NCBI RefSeq assembly: GCF_001735745.1 | Contig: NZ_CP017260.1 | Location: 900,001-932,000, forward strand | Length of the DNA: 32,000 nucleotides | Source: Formosa sp. Hel1_33_131 | Lineage (GTDB): Bacteria; Bacteroidota; Bacteroidia; Flavobacteriales; Flavobacteriaceae | Reading direction: 5' to 3' | Shown: one piece after another, positions 1 to 6,491 of the stretch | Layout: the number at the start of each line of letters is the position of its first letter | Numbering within the stretch: position 1 is the first letter of the stretch | Translations under genes and position numbers: made by a program | Notes under the pieces: model-generated | What the model saw: the letters and a program-made list of their open reading frames with translations, nothing else | The model's database searches: none | Told to the model about the DNA's origin: nothing

Positions 1-888
1 TATCAGAGAATTGTGACGTTCCTAATAATACTGAACAAGGTTTTGTCTATAGAAGACACTCAAGTCAATGTTAATGGGACTAATATTTCTACAACTATTG
101 AGGGTTTAACGCCTAACACGACTTATTATGTAAGGGCTTTCTTGACTAACACTTTAGGAGAATTTTACAGTAATGAAGTTAGTTTTTCTACTGAAGAAGA
201 GATAACAGGAAGTTGTGATGGAGCGCCTTATCCAAGTATTGTTTACGGAACTCAAGAATGGACTGTTGAGAATGCTTGCCACACTACTTATAGAGATGGC
301 ACGCCTATACCACAAGTTACAGATAATGATGAATGGCGTTATTTAACTACAGGGGCTTGGTGTTATTATGGAAACGACCCTACCAATGAAGTGTTGTATA
401 ATTGGTATGCGGTAGCAGGTATTCACGATACAGACCCTAACACACCTAACAAAGAATTTGCACCAGAGGGCTGGCACGCACCAAGTAATCTTGAGTGGAC
501 TACCCTTGAAAACTATCTTATAGCAAATGGTTATAATTATGATGGTACAACCACAGGAAATAAAATAGCTAAGTCAATGGCATCAACAACAGGATGGTTA
601 AGCTCAACAACACTAGGAACTCCAGGCAACAACCAAAGCACTAACAATAGTAGCGGCTTTAACGCCTTCCACACGGGCACTCGCTCATATTATGGAACAA
701 TGAGCCCGGGTGATGATTTTGAACCTGAAGAATATGTTGTATTTTGGTCTTCAACTGGTTTTAATAATAATATTGAAAATTATGGTGCTTTTAGTCGCAA
801 CTTGTACTACGACAGTAGTAGTCTCGAAACAGCTTACATAGACTATAGTGCAGCACACGGCTTCCCTGTTCGTTTAGTCAAAGACTAA
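1..888 (+). CDS. Fibrobacter succinogenes major paralogous (FISUMP) domain protein with an upstream Fn3-like repeat; 5' partial
   Basis: Frame 1 is open from base 1, and the track ORF starts at GTG 13. 'GLTPNTTYYVRAFLTNTLGEFYSNEVSFST' is an Fn3-like repeat. 'GTQEWTVENL..YRDGTPI..WYAV..APEGWHAPSNLEWTTLENYL...GFPVRLVKD*' matches FISUMP hallmarks. A possible frame switch near base 50 is described in findings. Confidence 0.75.
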   Translation, partial: YQRIVTFLIILNKVLSIEDTQVNVNGTNISTTIEGLTPNTTYYVRAFLTNTLGEFYSNEVSFSTEEEITGSCDGAPYPSIVYGTQEWTVENACHTTYRDGTPIPQVTDNDEWRYLTTGAWCYYGNDPTNEVLYNWYAVAGIHDTDPNTPNKEFAPEGWHAPSNLEWTTLENYLIANGYNYDGTTTGNKIAKSMASTTGWLSSTTLGTPGNNQSTNNSSGFNAFHTGTRSYYGTMSPGDDFEPEEYVVFWSSTGFNNNIENYGAFSRNLYYDSSSLETAYIDYSAAHGFPVRLVKD

Positions 889-1108
889 CAACTCTACTAA
901 TAGGTAAAGGCAAGTTAGTTGCTTCTATCAAATAGCTTCCATTGTCTGTTTTAACCGTATATTTAAGCTTATCTATTCGTTCTATACTGATAATGGTTTT
1001 GGCGTTGTTTTCAGCCAATTTAAAGGCAATATAGCGGCATTGAATGTCGTCTATTTCAGTAGCTTCTAAAAGGTGCTTAAAAAGGCTGTTTTGGTTTGTT
1101 GTTTTCAT
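878..1108 (-). CDS. Hypothetical 76-aa protein, last gene of the int-xis-rep module
   Basis: ORF co-oriented with the rep-like gene. It overlaps the FISUMP stop by 11 nt. No recognisable motif. Confidence 0.4.
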   Translation of the reverse strand: MKTTNQNSLFKHLLEATEIDDIQCRYIAFKLAENNAKTIISIERIDKLKYTVKTDNGSYLIEATNLPLPISRVVSL

Positions 1109-1177
1109 AGGTTTTTTTGTTGTTTAGACTACACGATATGGTGTAATATATACATACATCATTGTATGTACATCAAA

Positions 1178-2320
1178 TTATTTAGGTATTAGATTTTTTG
1201 CTTGTATTTCGTCAATAAATTCACGCCACATTTTTCGATTGTGAGTAATAGTTTTTACGCCCACTTCGTTCATATTCACAATGCGTAATAAATCAGCTTT
1301 TAGATTACCTCTTGCTGAATGGTTTTTAATGTCTGGGTGGAACTCACTAACATAATATGGGATTGCTTCTTCAATATTGCATTTGACTAATTCAGCGTGT
1401 TTAAGCATTGCATAGTATTTAAATTTTTGTGACAGTGTCATTCCTTCTTTATGGCTTATTTCTCTGTATCCAGTCATATATTTTGACATTGGTCTATTAA
1501 AGACTTGAAGAAAGGCTCTATTTAATTCCAGCTTCAATAAGTCGTTTAAAGTTTTGACATTATATCCGTAAGTTTTGAAGTGTTGATTGTTTTTAATTGT
1601 TGTTTCTACACGAAGCAATCTATCATCATCAAAGAATTTATTTTGAGGATACCTATTGCCATCTAAATCAACCAGCTCGCCATTTAATTCAGCCTTTAAA
1701 TATGTTTCATAAAATGCAGTACTATTGTGTTTTAGTTCTACTGCTTTTGCATAATATTTAAGAAACTGCTTTGAATAAAAAGCCTTACCAACCTTACTTC
1801 TATTACCCCACCAGATGCCACAATTATTTTCCTCTCTTTTGCTATACACATTTATGTTTTTGCTTGGGATTGTTAGGTCTTTGCAAACCTTAATAACCTT
1901 TTTAATTCTTGTGTCTTTGGTGTCTAAATGATAATCAATACAGAAATCCACATCTACCACTAAAGCGTTTAAAAACTTCTCTTTTGTTATCGTAATTAAT
2001 CCCTCTCTATTTATAAAATGGAAACATTGTTTTATGGTTTGCTTGTCAATTCCCTTAAAGTAGTTTTGCTTTAGTGATTTGGATGAAAAGCCAATGTAAA
2101 GCGTATCAATGCCAAATGGTCTTTTAATAGCATAGCTACAACTTATTATCTCATTAGGATTAAAGTAAGTTGTGTTTACGTGTTCCTCTATCACTTCGCC
2201 ATCATCATTTGAAGTAGTGATTGAACGCATAAAAGAGCTGTGTTCTTTGTTTACGATTACCTCGCTTAAAGGCAGATGAATTCGCAAACTATCTATTTTC
2301 GGTTTGCCTAGTGGTATCAT
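1178..2320 (-). CDS. Putative rolling-circle replication initiator (Rep_trans / phage CRI-like)
   Basis: 380 aa. 'VDVDFCIDYH', 'WWGNRSKVGKAFYSKQFLKYYAK' and 'LRVETTIKN' resemble the conserved blocks of Rep_trans-type initiators as I recall them. The gene sits 3 nt downstream of the HTH gene. The assignment rests on motif resemblance only. Confidence 0.45.
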   Translation of the reverse strand: MIPLGKPKIDSLRIHLPLSEVIVNKEHSSFMRSITTSNDDGEVIEEHVNTTYFNPNEIISCSYAIKRPFGIDTLYIGFSSKSLKQNYFKGIDKQTIKQCFHFINREGLITITKEKFLNALVVDVDFCIDYHLDTKDTRIKKVIKVCKDLTIPSKNINVYSKREENNCGIWWGNRSKVGKAFYSKQFLKYYAKAVELKHNSTAFYETYLKAELNGELVDLDGNRYPQNKFFDDDRLLRVETTIKNNQHFKTYGYNVKTLNDLLKLELNRAFLQVFNRPMSKYMTGYREISHKEGMTLSQKFKYYAMLKHAELVKCNIEEAIPYYVSEFHPDIKNHSARGNLKADLLRIVNMNEVGVKTITHNRKMWREFIDEIQAKNLIPK

Positions 2321-2323
2321 CTA

Positions 2324-2599
2324 TTACTGCAATAAATCTGTAATCTCGCCTCTTTTATATAGTTTCTTTGCACCAATTCGTTTGAAAGGAATTAGTCCTT
2401 TTTTTTCTTTTCGATACAAAGTAGTGTGGCTTATATTTAAAAGGTTTTGGACATCTTTTGAAGTTAGATAGTCTTCATCGGAACTTTGGCGTGCAATTGC
2501 CTCGTCAAATAATTCTCTTATTTGTAGCTTTAACAGTTCAGTGATTTGTTGTGATAATTCGGAAGGAGTTACTCCTTGTACTTGTGTGATGGTACTCAT
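2324..2599 (-). CDS. Helix-turn-helix (excisionase/MerR-like, HTH_17-type) DNA-binding protein
   Basis: 91 aa. 'LTSKDVQNLLNISHTTLYRKEKKGLIPFKRIGAKKLYKRGEI' is a typical excisionase-family HTH. It lies between the integrase and rep-like genes. Confidence 0.75.
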   Translation of the reverse strand: MSTITQVQGVTPSELSQQITELLKLQIRELFDEAIARQSSDEDYLTSKDVQNLLNISHTTLYRKEKKGLIPFKRIGAKKLYKRGEITDLLQ

Positions 2600-2727
2600 T
2601 TAATTAAATTTTAAGTTAATAATAAGAGTACTCGTGATTTTTACTATTTTTGTAGAGTATTAAGGTCTTCGAAAATTTTAATACTTACTGATTGAGCTAC
2701 TTTTCACGAGTGGCTCTTTCTTTTTTA

Positions 2728-2735
2728 CAAATCTA
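2728..2735 (-). promoter_or_regulatory. Candidate Bacteroidota -7 box (TAGATTTG on the minus strand) for the xis/rep operon
   Basis: The plus strand reads CAAATCTA, the reverse complement of TAnnTTTG. It lies about 130 nt upstream of the HTH gene start. Confidence 0.4.
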
Positions 2736-2948
2736 TACTGTGTTACACTGATACACAATGCTCACTCACAAATATTACCTGTAAGTTTTTAACGTCAAGT
2801 AAGAATAACCTTACTTTCCTTCTTAAAAGTTTTCGCATTTAATATGAAATTAAACCCTCAAACTGTTTCTTGTTCTCTGTTGGCTTTTTTCTTATATCGT
2901 TTTATCTCATAATAGTTATTAACATATCTAATTTCAAAAACGCAGATT

Positions 2949-4181
2949 TTACGTCAAGTGTTGTTTCCACTTGCTAAAGTCTGGTCTTGCTTCCGCTACA
3001 TAAGTGTAGAGCATTTCATTTGTTTTGTGTCCAGTAAACTTTCTGATTTCCTCTGGTGGCATTTTATCAATCCAATAAGTACTAAAAGTCCTTCTGAATA
3101 TTTTTGTTTGGAAATACATATATTTTGGTCTTACAGCCTTAATGTTTCTTTCTACAGTCTTTAACCCATCTTTTCGTTTTACTTCAATTTGTTCGTTTAA
3201 GTAGCTATTTATTTTTGTGTCAATTTTAGCCATCTTGCCCAATGTCTTTAAAGCAATGTTTAGCTTAACATCTGAAACTTTATACGGCAATTCATCACTA
3301 TCATACATTGCCTTTACTTTTGGAAGTGCTGGTATGCGATTGGCTTGACCTTGCTTATTTTGAGAAAAGTCTAACACTAAAATATCATTATCAATCTTAA
3401 ACATACTCTTATTTATGCTTAATAACTCGTTAACTCTTTGACCAGTATTAATTCCGATAATCAACCATTTTCTCGCATTTATTAAGTGTGGTTTGTCAAG
3501 TTTAAGTTCCTCTATTCTTTTTATTTCATCTTCGTCTATTACGATAACTTTTGTGTCTTTGTATTTAGCAGATTTAGATTGTTTGAATTTTTGCCAATAT
3601 CTAAAATCATCTGGAAACTTTGAGGTTCTTGATGCGATTGATAAAACGGATTTAATATGGTCGACATCTTTGTTAATTGTGCCAATTCCGTATTTCTCGT
3701 CTTCTCTTAAATAATTTTTAAATCTGTCCAGTTCTTTAGCAGTCAAATCTTTTAACTCTAAACCCTTATTATATCTCGTTACTTTATCCTTTAGAACCTT
3801 GTAGTTGCTTATTGTGTTTGATGAAAGACCAGTATTAATAAGGTCTTTTATTTTAACATCAATCCAATTAATAAGTAAAGTGTCTTCTTGTTCATCAATT
3901 TCAAAAAACTCGTTACATCTATTATGAAGCCATTCTTTTGTAGGAATATAGTTTTCGCCACGTTCTAAAAACTTTTCTGAGACGTAATCAATACAATTCT
4001 CAACTGCGTGTTTAATTTTGGTAGGGACAGTTTTGTTTTTATAATCTTGTTTTGAAATTAAGAATTTAGTTTTGTAGTGAAGAATAATTTCGCCATCAGT
4101 AACCCCTTTTTTGAAGTGTCGAAGTTTAATGATAGCTTGTGCTTTAGGTTTTCTGCTTCTATATGCTAAATTCAGTTTCAT
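2949..4181 (-). CDS. Tyrosine site-specific recombinase (Bacteroidota-type integrase)
   Basis: About 410 aa. Catalytic-domain signatures are present: 'NTGQRVNELL' (Arg), 'IFRRTFSTYW' and 'TGHKTNEMLYTYV' (His...Tyr nucleophile). The N-terminus looks like an arm-binding region. I placed the start at ATG 4181; the track's TTG at 4190 is the alternative. Confidence 0.9.
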   Translation of the reverse strand: MKLNLAYRSRKPKAQAIIKLRHFKKGVTDGEIILHYKTKFLISKQDYKNKTVPTKIKHAVENCIDYVSEKFLERGENYIPTKEWLHNRCNEFFEIDEQEDTLLINWIDVKIKDLINTGLSSNTISNYKVLKDKVTRYNKGLELKDLTAKELDRFKNYLREDEKYGIGTINKDVDHIKSVLSIASRTSKFPDDFRYWQKFKQSKSAKYKDTKVIVIDEDEIKRIEELKLDKPHLINARKWLIIGINTGQRVNELLSINKSMFKIDNDILVLDFSQNKQGQANRIPALPKVKAMYDSDELPYKVSDVKLNIALKTLGKMAKIDTKINSYLNEQIEVKRKDGLKTVERNIKAVRPKYMYFQTKIFRRTFSTYWIDKMPPEEIRKFTGHKTNEMLYTYVAEARPDFSKWKQHLT

Positions 4182-4187
4182 ATAGTG

Positions 4188-4195
4188 CAAATATA
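4188..4195 (-). promoter_or_regulatory. Candidate -7 box (TATATTTG on the minus strand) for the integrase
   Basis: The plus strand reads CAAATATA, the reverse complement of TAnnTTTG. It lies immediately upstream of ATG 4181, which implies a very short or absent leader. Confidence 0.4.
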
Positions 4196-4200
4196 CAAAT

Positions 4201-4222
4201 TTGTACGATTATTGTACGATTT
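4201..4222. promoter_or_regulatory. Tandem 11-bp direct repeat (TTGTACGATTA / TTGTACGATTT) over the integrase -33 region
   Basis: Two adjacent copies are seen directly. The position suggests an Int/Xis/repressor binding site. Confidence 0.4.
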
Positions 4223-4351
4223 TATGGTATATTTTGAAATAAAAAGAAATTTAAATAAATTTATACTTAATTTATATATCTGTTAAATCCAGATTATAAC
4301 ACCTTTAAACTATTTCATATCATAAACACGTCTTACTACCACCTTGAGTAC

Positions 4352-4380
4352 AAAGCCCACATTCGTGGGTTTTTTTTTTT
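4352..4380 (+). terminator. Rho-independent terminator with no plus-strand gene upstream
   Basis: Stem CCCAC (4356-4360) / GTGGG (4365-4369), loop ATTC, followed by 11 T. Confidence 0.6.
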
Positions 4381-4727
4381 AATACCCGCAAAAGACAACC
4401 TAAAGGAAACCATTTTAAAATTCTAGACTTTTTGGCTATAATGGGCGATGAATGGCTTGCTGAGGTTTTTTATCTGGGTATGCCTTGGTATTTCTTATTG
4501 TAGTAACGTTGTTATCATCGGTTCAAGCGATTGGCCATGCTCCTATAAATCATTTGAACAAACAAAAAGAAAATCTGTTAAAAATTTCCTTTTCTTATTT
4601 GATATATTTGGTTTTTGCGTTTATTTTTTTACCTTTATAATCTACTTGTTTGGCAGTCATAGATTTTTAGGGCAATTAGTCGCTATTTTAGACTAATTTT
4701 AAACTGTAATATCCAAACAAAAACAAG

Positions 4728-4758
4728 AGGACACTGTTAAAGGTGTCCTTTTCTTTTG
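4728..4758. terminator. Bidirectional hairpin terminator downstream of the 156-aa repeat-protein gene
   Basis: Stem AGGACAC (4728-4734) / GTGTCCT (4743-4749). T-rich tracts follow on both strands. Confidence 0.6.
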
Positions 4759-4773
4759 CACTAGATTTAATGG

Positions 4774-5244
4774 TTACTTAGTTACAGTTTTGTTTGTTAT
4801 CATTTCCATTTTTGTGTACTGCTCGGATTTTGATACGACTAAGTTCCATAACGATTTAGCCTCGGCTGTGCATCCCTCAGCGGAGGCGTGTTCCTCTTTG
4901 GTGTAGGGTTCTGCTTCTGGTAAACATTCATTCCAAAATCTCATAGTCTCGGCTGTGCATCCCTTGGCTTCTGAATGTTCTTTTTTGGTGTAGGGCTCGG
5001 CATGTGGTAGGTCGATATTCCAATGTGCCATGGCTATGGCATTGCAGTGTCTGCCTTCGGAATGTTCGAGTTTAATAAATTGTTCGGCGGTTGGTAAGCT
5101 TAAATTCCAGTCAAATATTAACGAACTAGTGTTCCCTTCGTTGGTTTCGTTAAATTGTTGTTTTGTATAAGGTAATTTTTCACCCTTGGTTTGGGCTTCT
5201 TTGTTTGCCAATAACATAGTGTATGCATCTAACTCTTTGTTCAT
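4774..5244 (-). CDS. Acidic protein made of 4 full plus 1 partial copies of a 29-aa repeat (P-Y-T-K-x-E-H-x4-G-C-x7-W-N-x2-L-P-x-A-E)
   Basis: The internal periodicity is read directly from the translation. No signal peptide. I do not recognise the family. Confidence 0.7.
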   Translation of the reverse strand: MNKELDAYTMLLANKEAQTKGEKLPYTKQQFNETNEGNTSSLIFDWNLSLPTAEQFIKLEHSEGRHCNAIAMAHWNIDLPHAEPYTKKEHSEAKGCTAETMRFWNECLPEAEPYTKEEHASAEGCTAEAKSLWNLVVSKSEQYTKMEMITNKTVTK

Positions 5245-5250
5245 TTGAAT

Positions 5251-5619
5251 TTATTTTTTGCTGTTGTTTATTTCGTCCTCGGTGAATGGTTCGGCATCTG
5301 GCAGGCATTCGTTCCATAACACCAATTTTGTTTCACTAAAGCCATAGGTGTTGCTGTATTCTTGCTTGGTGAATGGCTCGGCATCTGGCAAAAGCCGATT
5401 CCATAAGACCATGGCTAGAGCGTCAAAACCTTCGGAGTCGGTATATTCTTTTTTGGTGTAGGCCTCCATAGTGTTTAAAAAAAAGTTCCAATACATTATG
5501 TCTTCGGAGTCGCAACCCGCTACAGCGGCGTGTTGCTGTTTGGTGTAGGGTGCTGACAAACGGTCTTTGATGGCTTTCTGATTGGCGTCTGTAATTTGTT
5601 TGGCGGTTTGGGGTTTCAT
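5251..5619 (-). CDS. Paralogous acidic protein with 3 full plus 1 partial copies of the same 29-aa repeat
   Basis: It has the same repeat consensus as 4774-5244, lies 6 nt upstream of it, and is co-oriented. Confidence 0.7.
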   Translation of the reverse strand: MKPQTAKQITDANQKAIKDRLSAPYTKQQHAAVAGCDSEDIMYWNFFLNTMEAYTKKEYTDSEGFDALAMVLWNRLLPDAEPFTKQEYSNTYGFSETKLVLWNECLPDAEPFTEDEINNSKK

Positions 5620-5743
5620 GATTTTTAGATTTGGGTTAATATTTTTATAGCATAAGTAATATATTTACACTACAAATTAAAGCATTACTATAATATTATG
5701 CAACTGAAACTAAATTTATTTTCAAAATATTACACTTAAACTA

Positions 5744-5751
5744 TAATTTTG
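5744..5751 (+). promoter_or_regulatory. Candidate -7 box TAATTTTG for the XRE regulator gene
   Basis: Exact TAnnTTTG match 27 nt upstream of ATG 5778. Confidence 0.5.
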
Positions 5752-5777
5752 TATTTTTGCTTAAACATAAATACGTT

Positions 5778-6065
5778 ATGAAGATATTAAGGCTAAAAGA
5801 AATACTAAAAGAGAAAGGTATTACAGGAAAAGAGTTCGCTCTTATGGTTAACGTTACGGAGGCTAGTGTCTCAAATCTTGTAAAGGGAGATAGTATCCCT
5901 AGAAAACAATTACTTATTGATATAGCCGCCGCCCTCGATGTCGACTTAAAAGACTTATTTATATCTACCAAACCACAGAAAAACCAGAAAGAGATTATAC
6001 AGACTATAAAAAACTCCATTGAAGATTTAGAGGCACTTTACGATACGATTGATAAAAGGAGTTAA
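5778..6065 (+). CDS. XRE-family helix-turn-helix transcriptional regulator
   Basis: 'MKILRLKEILKEKGITGKEFALMVNVTEASVSNLVKGDSIPRKQLLIDIAAALDVDLKDLF' is a canonical HTH_3 sequence. I prefer ATG 5778 to the track's TTG 5757. Confidence 0.85.
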   Translation: MKILRLKEILKEKGITGKEFALMVNVTEASVSNLVKGDSIPRKQLLIDIAAALDVDLKDLFISTKPQKNQKEIIQTIKNSIEDLEALYDTIDKRS

Positions 6066-6076
6066 ATCGTTTGTCT

Positions 6077-6265
6077 CTCATGCCTTGTTTGTATCTACCG
6101 TAGGTGAATGACGATGAGTTACGTCTTTGCAAGTCGTTTTTTACGACGCGGCAATCTGTTTGTTTTTAGTTTCACTCATGAGATTACTTCGGTCATACTT
6201 CCCTCGTAATGACGCTTGGATGCCTTGTATGTATCGACCGTAGGTGGAATGACGGCGAGTTACAT
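6077..6265. repeat. Upstream part of the 141-bp tandem repeat array (one full unit 6101-6240 plus partial flanking units)
   Basis: The unit aligns base-for-base, at roughly 94-95% by eye, with the units at 7413-7853. Confidence 0.9.
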
Positions 6266-6300
6266 CCCTTATGCCTTAAAGTAACCCTATGGAGTCGGTC

Positions 6301-6359
6301 TTAACTCGTGAATAACCACGAAATAATCGACTAAATTCACGAGTTAATGAATTTAGTCG
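6301..6359. promoter_or_regulatory. Two overlapping perfect palindromes just upstream of the fic -7 box
   Basis: A = TTAACTCGTGAAT (6301-6313) pairs with A' = ATTCACGAGTTAA (6335-6347). B = CGACTAAATTCA (6328-6339) pairs with B' = TGAATTTAGTCG (6348-6359). A' and B overlap, so the two pairings exclude each other. Confidence 0.6.
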
Positions 6360-6369
6360 TGAAAATAAG

Positions 6370-6377
6370 TATCTTTG
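6370..6377 (+). promoter_or_regulatory. Candidate -7 box TATCTTTG for fic
   Basis: Exact TAnnTTTG match about 115 nt upstream of ATG 6492. Confidence 0.5.
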
Positions 6378-6428
6378 CAACATATTAAAAGTGAACCAAC
6401 TCCTGGCTGTCGGCAAAGCGGGCGGCAA

Positions 6429-6456
6429 GCAGGCAGGCAGGCAGGCAGGCAGGCAG
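6429..6456. repeat. Tetranucleotide microsatellite (GCAG)x7 in the fic leader
   Basis: Seven perfect units counted directly. They sit in a GC-rich patch (6404-6458) within AT-rich DNA. Confidence 0.95.
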
Positions 6457-6491
6457 AGCTAACACGTTGAAAAACAATAGATATAAATCAG

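Follow-up and report, generated by a model that had tools for sequence, protein, structure and literature searches.

What are two adjacent bacterial genes whose products consist almost entirely of a 29-residue repeat, where else does this repeat occur, and what might it do? The question is raised by two open reading frames (ORFs) of Formosa sp. Hel1_33_131 (Flavobacteriaceae), here called ORF A and ORF B, which lie in a stretch of 32,000 nucleotides (assembly GCF_001735745.1, contig NZ_CP017260.1, positions 900,001 to 932,000; hereafter the window, to which all unlabelled coordinates refer) next to a divergent gene for an XRE-family helix-turn-helix (HTH) regulator. An original prediction, made from the letters of the window, had described the repeat as unfamiliar and proposed that the proteins are small effectors, decoys or anti-defence proteins of a phage or genomic island. 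The analysis reported here indicates that ORF A and ORF B very probably belong to a new family, named the WN-YTK repeat, of real genes encoding small cytoplasmic proteins made of alpha-helical tandem units. The family is shared by chromosomes of marine Flavobacteriaceae, where it is accompanied by an XRE gene, and by phages, where it occurs as tandem arrays and in modules for early functions or DNA metabolism.

Two paralogous genes built from one repeat

The [YF]-T-K motif starts at residues 24, 53, 82 and 111 of ORF A and at residues 25, 55, 84, 113 and 142 of ORF B, and the repeat period is exactly 29 in both proteins except for one 30-residue unit, the first of ORF B. When self-similarity was compared over lags 5 to 69, lag 29 was the strongest in both ORFs and lag 58 came next; with the highest value at any lag in 500 shuffles as reference, the lag-29 signal reached z = 13.5 in ORF A and z = 18.9 in ORF B. 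The two proteins align with 42% identity (E = 7e-27) and are paralogues of each other. The predicted layout of two ORFs of 122 and 156 amino acids on the minus strand, containing three and four full units, respectively, and a trailing partial unit each, has been borne out in coordinates, period and counts (Table 1), and the divergent neighbour is indeed an XRE gene with an HTH_3 match. The expected lack of a signal peptide also agrees with the sequences, as no hydrophobic N-terminal or internal stretch was found in either protein (maximum Kyte-Doolittle value over 15 residues, 0.89 for ORF A and 0.51 for ORF B), which leaves no candidate signal peptide or membrane anchor.

Tandem Repeats Finder detected no 87-bp DNA repeat within 4700-5700, suggesting that the units are old and that their periodicity is kept at the protein level. 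Ratios of nonsynonymous to synonymous substitution rates (dN/dS) against orthologues in related contigs were 0.18-0.46 (0.24-0.46 for ORF A against contigs L005, L002 and L012) and below 1 in every informative pair, which indicates that both are real coding genes under purifying, though relaxed, selection. A terminator-like hairpin downstream of ORF B probably marks the end of a two-gene operon formed by ORF A and ORF B.

Search for relatives

At E <= 1, neither protein had a match in Pfam-A, NCBIfam or PADLOC, and PHROGs gave only two chance-level matches (E > 0.1), both for ORF A. The best E value of a profile built from two repeat units (the tile profile) against the chain sequences of the PDB was 0.29. 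No match was found by tblastn when ORF B and a phage member were compared with 50,697 GenBank phage records, or when ORF B was compared with 72,556 plasmids. Among genomes representing 185,579 species (one each), only three loci were detected, all in metagenome-assembled genomes of uncultured Flavobacteriaceae. Only 10 relatives, none with a functional name, came from a word-indexed search of 5.8 billion clusters; an exhaustive HMMER search of 1.84 billion representatives with the tile profile returned 57 proteins at E <= 1e-3, 33 of them at E <= 1e-10. After removal of three evident false positives and two doubtful fibre proteins, about 50 credible clusters remained, all of which are metagenomic and none functionally named; their proteins have 56-380 residues, and their W-N motifs are spaced by 27-31 residues, mostly 29.

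Annotation of these relatives was equally uninformative. Cluster look-up gave singletons, entries called 'hypothetical protein' or nameless entries. In a Pfam-A scan of 38 relatives the strong matches were to WD40/STAND families, each from a single false-positive member, and ten relatives checked singly had no significant Pfam domain and only chance-level matches to any repeat family. Thirteen phage or distant members had no match in PHROGs, and a literature search returned nothing relevant on the repeat motif or on helical-repeat or tandem-paralogue phage proteins. Three candidates were dropped from the family: P0050 is a cadherin-like protein, P0065 a junk repeat, and P0058 (1546 aa) was taken as the single member matching WD40/nSTAND. 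The WN-YTK repeat is therefore a family without match in the curated sequence, phage or solved-structure libraries searched. The original prediction that it can be assigned to no known family has held, as the Pfam, NCBIfam, PADLOC, PHROGs and PDB sequence searches, and the Foldseek searches described below, all fail; the profile searches run here led to no well-characterised family in Pfam, NCBIfam, PHROGs or the PDB sequences.

Some distant members carry repeats fused to extra domains, either in their C-termini (P0016, P0025, P0040, P0053 and P0061) or in their N-termini (P0017 and P0041). These extra domains had no significant match in Pfam or PHROGs; one of them is a shared C-terminal module of about 45 residues, 'NPEKITKEIF...Y.....F..F.K.MK.RNI'. 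In addition, a conserved 124-aa protein with one 'SSWNEKYNTAHPYTKEEH' motif is encoded on three viral contigs (L023 11633-12007, L026 1935-2309 and L027 3515-3889), which could be either a chance pattern match or a single-unit relative.

Predicted structure and conservation of the unit

AlphaFold2 was run independently for the two proteins and gave confident models from very few sequences. For ORF B, the mean predicted local distance difference test score (pLDDT) was 92.3 and the predicted template modelling score (pTM) 0.83 with only 12 aligned sequences; for ORF A, the values were 92.4 and 0.81 with 19 sequences, and five of five models exceeded a pLDDT of 91. According to DSSP, every unit in these models consists of a helix of 5-6 residues over K4-S9 (T-K-x-E-H), a turn at G12 plus a hydrophobic residue, a 10-residue helix at positions 15-24 ending in W21-N22, and an 8-residue closing loop, L-P-x-A-E-P-Y. 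The long helix is amphipathic, and the short helix, which bears the conserved His/Tyr, is opened by T3-x-x-E6, which we take to be a classical helix capping box. At the N-terminus, a leader helix of 13 residues contains an invariant Asn and aligns with the W-N helix, suggesting that it is a degenerate capping half unit, while the trailing 'P-F-T-E-D-E-I-N' forms a lone short helix capping the C-terminal end. In both models a beta-bridge joins the Gly loops of units 1 and 2, indicating that equivalent loops of adjacent units touch, as in a solenoid, and the overall shape is predicted to be a rod-like solenoid.

No PDB structure was matched by Foldseek at E < 1 (best E = 1.7 for ORF B and 1.1 for ORF A), and the best match of the ORF B model in BFVD had E = 1.4. 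Template modelling scores (TM-scores) were at most 0.41, and the weak best matches were mostly TPR and LRR solenoids. Structure prediction followed by a fold search, the second proposed check, thus gave confident helical models and no significant match in the PDB or BFVD.

Conservation and co-variation were counted over 94 distinct units of the family at large. Every unit has W21 and N22, K4 is present in 91 of the 94 units, and T3, Y/F2, E6, H/Y/F7, G12, L25 and P26 are strongly kept. Entropy exceeds 3.2 bits at positions 16, 19, 20, 23 and 24, which form one face of the long helix; in general, framework positions are almost invariant and the solvent-facing positions of both helices are freely variable. 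A similar partition was observed over the 37 units of the phage array described below, in which the raw ratio of nonsynonymous to synonymous differences (pN/pS) was at most 0.17 at ten framework positions, 0.21-0.27 at positions 6, 10 and 15, and about 1-2.4 at positions 5, 12, 14, 16, 18, 19 and 23; since pS is saturated, these values demonstrate strong heterogeneity but are no proof of positive selection at single positions.

The residues at positions 7 and 13 had been reported to co-vary, which was taken as a sign that they contact each other. The counts for the seven window units were right (His/Cys in four, Tyr/Phe in two and Phe/Asn in one), and in the close family all 22 His units also carry Cys. 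The proposed contact did not survive the wider comparison: the mutual information of the two positions ranks 201 of 351 column pairs, and the association is gone outside the close family (distant units, p = 1.0), where His is partnered by Phe (16 units), Pro (6), Leu (5), Cys (5) or Ile (4). Tyr/Cys pairs occur as well. Position 13 (C35, F27, I9, P8 and L7 in the 94 units) seems to be a generic hydrophobic position that behaves like a buried core residue, and the His/Cys pairing is probably a lineage-specific feature, neither a contact nor a metal signature. The acidity noted for the two window proteins was likewise correct (isoelectric point (pI) 4.66 for ORF A and 5.40 for ORF B, net charge -7 each) but does not extend to the family, of which 33 of 62 members have a pI below 6 and 21 a pI above 8, with a median of 5.8.

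Relatives in phages

Relatives were detected on five or more contigs of viral or phage-like character, frequently arranged in tandem, and inspection of the neighbourhoods of homologues has thus confirmed the suspected link to phages. A 209-aa gene with six units lies directly upstream of genes for a RecE-like exonuclease and RecT (L009), a 93-aa gene lies between portal and MuF-like genes (L010), two tandem genes are located among small early genes (L024), and a distant member lies 3' of a DEAD/ResIII helicase gene on a large phage-like contig (L054). Cassette-type XRE genes were absent from all phage loci inspected.

The largest expansion was observed in a 39.7-kb viral contig, UViG_3300028029_000027 (IMGVR_UViG_3300028029_000027; L047/L011 and L042/L008), which has repeat genes at both ends, after an ATP-dependent DNA ligase gene at one end and before exonuclease and helicase genes at the other. 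Contig L040 (1-4846), from the same sample, contains ten tandem paralogues and shares an overlap of 126 identical nucleotides with one UViG end. This overlap indicates one phage with at least 14 paralogues in a single array: ten on L040, one at the joined UViG end and three at the other end. The assembly breaks inside the array. The array occupies about 6 kb of a genome of about 45 kb.

A chromosomal cassette and its XRE regulator

The metagenome contigs L001-L007 are 86-91% identical to the window at the nucleotide level in the core genes that flank the cassette (radical-SAM/DUF3641, CMD, rhodanese and Por_Secre_tail). At the same site they have a divergent XRE gene of 95 aa and, next to it, three paralogues in tandem, which can be distinguished by their N-termini: type 1 (119-122 aa, MKPQTAK/MTQPARE), to which ORF A belongs, type 2 (98-127 aa, MNKELDAY) and type 3 (98-99 aa, MNKKRLT). 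Where downstream sequence is present (L001, L002 and L004), tRNA-Leu(CAA) lies 3' of the third gene. The cassette has diverged about as far as its flanks (nucleotide identity 85.6% vs 89.5%).

More generally, the chromosomal cassette consists of a divergent XRE gene and one to three paralogues and occupies at least four chromosomal sites. Besides the site in the window, it was found beside a TonB-receptor locus (L012, L015, L017-L019 and L036), after a fatty-acid desaturase gene (L016) and near hflX (L013 and L014); the same type-1-like gene is encoded on L041. A divergent XRE gene adjoins every chromosomal-type cassette whose upstream sequence was inspected, and it is fairly probable that the repeat genes form an XRE-controlled operon. 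As a separate observation, the distant 324-aa member P0029 (E = 3.3e-14, seven W-N motifs) is encoded at L053 388-1362 (GCA_054043145.1), in a bacterial genome assembly, beside a nif cluster.

The regulator itself varies in an uneven manner. At least seven variants of its recognition helix were detected, and its C-terminal part (residues 62-95) is better conserved than the HTH part (mean identity 0.63 vs 0.49). The repeated motif in the intergenic region differs with each XRE variant inspected: ATACGTAA occurs three times in L002, AACAGAAACGACA three times in L005, and ATATCTAAAT in several copies in L012. Between the window and L002, the HTH part and the intergenic region have no DNA similarity, while the 3' end of the gene and the DNA downstream are 90% identical. 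The regulators of the window, L002, L005, L012, L030, L032 and L051 appear as mosaics, in which varied recognition helices stand on a more conserved C-terminal tail. It may be that repressor and operator have been exchanged as one unit, and the cassette would then show a repressor recognition helix and its operator being swapped together.

ORF B as a recombination product

A comparison with L005 by BLASTN revealed the origin of ORF B. L005 6598-7880 corresponds to window 6256-4976 and L005 8079-8309 to window 4995-4765, and the two blocks overlap by 20 nucleotides in the window. Type 2 homology of ORF B reaches position 4976 and type 3 homology begins at position 4995; ORF B consists of the cap and units 1-2 of type 2, joined to the two units and tail of type 3. 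In the nearest strains (L030, L031 and P0001) the type 2 and type 3 genes form a 227-aa read-through fusion, and ORF B is this fusion minus 71 residues between two P-Y-T-K motifs. The same genes are found elsewhere in versions of two, three and four units, which shows that recombination between repeats alters both how many units a gene has and how many genes are present. The reading frame has been retained in every rearrangement, including the 71-aa in-frame deletion and the in-frame read-through fusion. The cassette is thus a clean small example of repeat-mediated change, in which a read-through fusion was followed by an in-frame deletion between repeats.

Genomic surroundings

The original prediction placed the genes in a mobile-element context. 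This was right as far as the link to phages is concerned; the adjacent integrase, however, belongs to a separate element, and in related strains the cassette keeps one chromosomal position. Over window 6213-4339, contig L029 shows 99.84% identity; it carries the identical XRE gene, ORF A and ORF B, and next to them an intact tRNA-Leu(CAA) and no integrase gene. Its homology to the window ends 13 nucleotides inside the 3' end of the tRNA (window 4339-4351). The intact site indicates that the integrase, the HTH_17 gene and the genes further left form an element inserted in tRNA-Leu, and that the repeat genes lie outside it. The idea of the cassette as cargo of the integrase element was thus rejected, as the empty site of L029 still has XRE and both repeat genes. 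The other element end and the tRNA lie past the left window edge, and no tRNA was detected there within the window. The features of the locus are listed in Table 1.

Table 1. Coordinates of features at the repeat-gene locus of the window
Feature	Position	Strand	Basis or remark
380-aa ORF (window part 1-4351)	1178-2320
HTH_17 gene	2324-2599
Tyrosine integrase gene	2949-4190
att-like remnant, last 13 nt of tRNA-Leu(CAA); not in cassette	4339..4351	plus	Comparison with L029
Native tRNA terminator hairpin	4352-4373
Intrinsic-terminator-like hairpin and T-run	4728..4749	minus	25 nt past ORF B stop
ORF B, 156 aa, type 2/type 3 chimera	4774..5244	minus	Cap helix; 4 full units, nt 4822-5172; half unit, nt 4777-4821
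Recombination junction in ORF B	4976..4995	minus	P-Y-T-K start of unit 3; BLASTN blocks vs L005
ORF A (type 1 paralogue), 122 aa	5251..5619	minus	ORF list, orthologues in L005/L002/L012, AlphaFold2 model; cap helix at the N-terminus; 3 full units of 29 aa, nt 5290-5550; half unit at the C-terminus, nt 5254-5289
Divergent intergenic region: promoters and presumed XRE operators	5620..5777	none	AT-rich, long imperfect inverted repeats
XRE-family HTH regulator, 95 aa	5778..6065	plus	HTH_3 PF01381, 44.8 bits vs cutoff 23, E = 1.3e-11
Fic gene	6492-7364		PADLOC SoFic 1.1e-28, PDC-S04 2.3e-32

On the other side of the regulator lies a Fic gene, which is absent from more distant relatives. ORF A and ORF B had no PADLOC match, and only their neighbours did (Fic to SoFic/PDC-S04, XRE to generic HTH models). 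Pairing with Fic was rejected as the reason for the XRE gene, as strains beyond L031 keep XRE and the cassette without Fic. The Fic gene is bracketed by four copies of a 142-161 nt direct repeat (6106-6266, 7419-7579, 7561-7721 and 7703-7863), the second of which is 96% identical to the first; distant relatives have the repeat region without Fic. An Rfam scan of 4000-8200 gave only sub-threshold chance matches, and the direct repeat was unmatched. A (CCTG)n-type microsatellite is located upstream of the Fic gene (6424-6456), and relatives have this tract between tRNA-Leu and the type 3 gene (L004 2255-2275). Two further ORFs, one of 92 aa antisense to the XRE gene (5741-6019, minus) and one of 82 aa in the spacer between the tRNA and ORF B (4448-4696, plus), look spurious, and database entry P0054 is a miscalled fusion that starts in the frame antisense to the XRE gene.

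Possible functions

The best overall explanation, to which we would give somewhat less than an even chance, is that the WN-YTK repeat is a phage-derived modular binding scaffold in phage-host conflict, kept on chromosomes as a cassette under XRE control. The units would stack into a solenoid-like rod serving as a stoichiometric binding scaffold for another macromolecule, and the likeliest target would be a protein involved in phage-host conflict, for example a host nuclease or a component of defence or repair. The family looks phage-derived, as in phages it heads recombination or replication (early) modules and can expand to a tandem array of 14 or more paralogues. Chromosomes of Flavobacteriaceae would have captured a cassette of one to three paralogues and kept it under a divergent XRE repressor, which presumably holds the operon off until a signal arrives. 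That the proteins act in such conflict specifically as protein-binding inhibitors or decoys is a tentative proposal, held with slightly less confidence than the explanation as a whole.

A bolder extension, which is rather unlikely, is that the repeat represents a new alpha-solenoid fold that serves marine phages as an evolvable set of binders against variable host defence or recombination proteins. The framework would remain fixed, while the exposed helix faces, the number of units and the number of gene copies diversify; chromosomes would carry a captured version of one to three genes under an XRE switch with interchangeable specificity.

Several points weigh against a phage-derived scaffold of this kind. 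Both the binding-scaffold role and the conflict role are deduced from architecture and gene position, and the rod-like shape is itself deduced from DSSP periodicity in predicted models. The variable exposed positions may simply lack constraint. The chromosomal cassette appears to be vertically inherited at a fixed site, which would also fit a host function unrelated to phages, and the position of P0029 near nif genes shows that not all members are in phage or island contexts.

Among the alternatives, the one that survives best, although unlikely, is that the cassette protects the host: XRE would sense infection and de-repress repeat proteins that block a phage component, and the phage copies would be counter-measures or decoys. 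Several strains retain the cassette at one fixed place in the chromosome and under purifying selection, the same tRNA-Leu hotspot has also gained a SoFic-like Fic gene and an integrative element, and the XRE recognition helix diversifies like an immunity determinant. However, the repeat proteins match nothing in PADLOC and have no enzymatic or toxic domain, the cassette is found outside obvious defence islands too, and it is in phage genomes that the family has expanded most. A toxin-antitoxin module was rejected, because XRE lies divergently on the opposite strand and no toxin domain was matched by the repeat proteins.

It is less probable still that the repeat proteins are partners of XRE, acting as anti- or co-repressors through its conserved C-terminal tail, or that they bind nucleic acid in a modular manner. 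In TALE, PUF and PPR repeats, nucleic acid is read one unit at a time, and the near-invariant Lys4 of each WN-YTK unit would create a row of lysines along the array; basic proteins make up a third of the family, and XRE, whose C-terminal part is the better conserved one, strictly adjoins the repeat genes in chromosomal cassettes. On the other hand, such an XRE gene is missing near the phage members, both window proteins are acidic, and no HTH or known RNA- or DNA-binding repeat signature was found in the repeat proteins; moreover, a freely changing number of units would alter the length of a nucleic-acid target.

Of similarly low, or even slightly lower, probability is the analogy with DNA mimics, in which an acidic rod would inhibit restriction enzymes or nucleases of the RecBCD/AddAB type. 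Ocr, ArdA and lambda Gam inhibit restriction enzymes or RecBCD-type nucleases by DNA mimicry, and in lambda the slot upstream of the recombination genes, which in L009 is taken by a repeat gene just upstream of the RecE-like exonuclease and RecT genes, is occupied by gam. ORF A and ORF B are acidic, but a net charge of -7 is modest for such a protein, and no similarity in sequence or fold to the Ocr, ArdA and Gam entries of the PDB was found. As charge is not conserved in the family, with 21 of 62 members basic, the reading is weakened, and DNA mimicry was rejected as a family property.

That the genes are a decaying prophage remnant without current function, or spurious ORFs, is very improbable. 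Fusions, internal deletions and truncated copies do exist, and the dN/dS values are relaxed in comparison with typical core genes; nevertheless, frames are intact through every rearrangement, every informative pair has a dN/dS below 1, the framework residues do not vary over about 50 clusters, the AlphaFold2 models are confident, and the genes probably form an operon with its own terminator. Finally, metal binding by His7 and Cys13 would suit the four His/Cys units of the window and the close family but has been largely refuted, as the ligand residues are not conserved family-wide, distant His pairs chiefly with Phe, Tyr/Cys pairs exist, and position 13, whose mutual information with position 7 is low in rank, looks generically hydrophobic.

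Returning to the phage-derived scaffold, the WN-YTK repeat combines a confident fold prediction from a very shallow alignment with, as yet, no relative in curated sequence, phage or solved-structure libraries. Its relatives are known only from uncultured marine Flavobacteriaceae, a group that dominates algal-bloom breakdown, and from their viruses. Host-interaction families of large eukaryotic viruses typically show multigene expansions like that of the phage array, which, to our knowledge, have rarely been described in phages. If the proteins are indeed diversified binders of host defence or repair proteins, they would represent a new anti-defence principle, and the 29-residue unit would offer a very small, naturally modular helical scaffold for protein engineering.

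Comparison with known systems

With TPR/Sel1, HEAT-like PBS-lyase, LRV and ankyrin repeats, the WN-YTK repeat shares short tandem units (two helices each in the WN-YTK model), a hydrophobic framework under a variable exposed surface, a variable number of units and capping units at both ends. It differs from these solenoids in having no match to a Pfam profile (E <= 1) or in Foldseek (E < 1; TM-score <= 0.41), in its unequal helices of about 5 and 10 residues, and in its length of 29 combined with the signature T-K-x-E-H ... G-hydrophobic ... W-N ... L-P-x-A-E.

A possible distant relationship was noticed with a 30-aa stalk repeat that is not in Pfam, 'SYTETDPxFxxSxAxGITxTDTxxWNxKLD', of which two secreted fibre-like proteins of Bacteroidota, P0052 (727 aa) and P0064 (664 aa), contain 9-10 copies; P0064 ends in a BclA_C head domain. 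Both repeats have a G-[CI]-T-x6-W-N-x2-L ... Y-T segment with identical spacing from G to W, and the family profile matches P0052 and P0064 at E = 6.6e-7 and 2.9e-4, values that are inflated by nine-fold repetition of a weak match. In contrast, the stalk repeat has a period of 30 with indels elsewhere and forms Thr/Ser/Asp-rich secreted fibres, and the hhalign probability was only 60%.

Lambda Gam, T7 Ocr and ArdA resemble the WN-YTK proteins as small, signal-less and often acidic proteins heading phage early or recombination modules. The likeness lies in size, gene position and, for this window only, charge; it does not extend to sequence or fold, and charge is not conserved among WN-YTK proteins.

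Anti-CRISPR/Aca loci provide the remaining comparison. They too contain small, fast-evolving accessory genes of unknown fold paired with an HTH repressor, arranged in tandem and shared between phages and chromosomes. The HTH gene of the WN-YTK cassette, however, is divergent instead of being the last gene of the same operon, and its tandem genes are not unrelated to each other but paralogues belonging to one repeat family.

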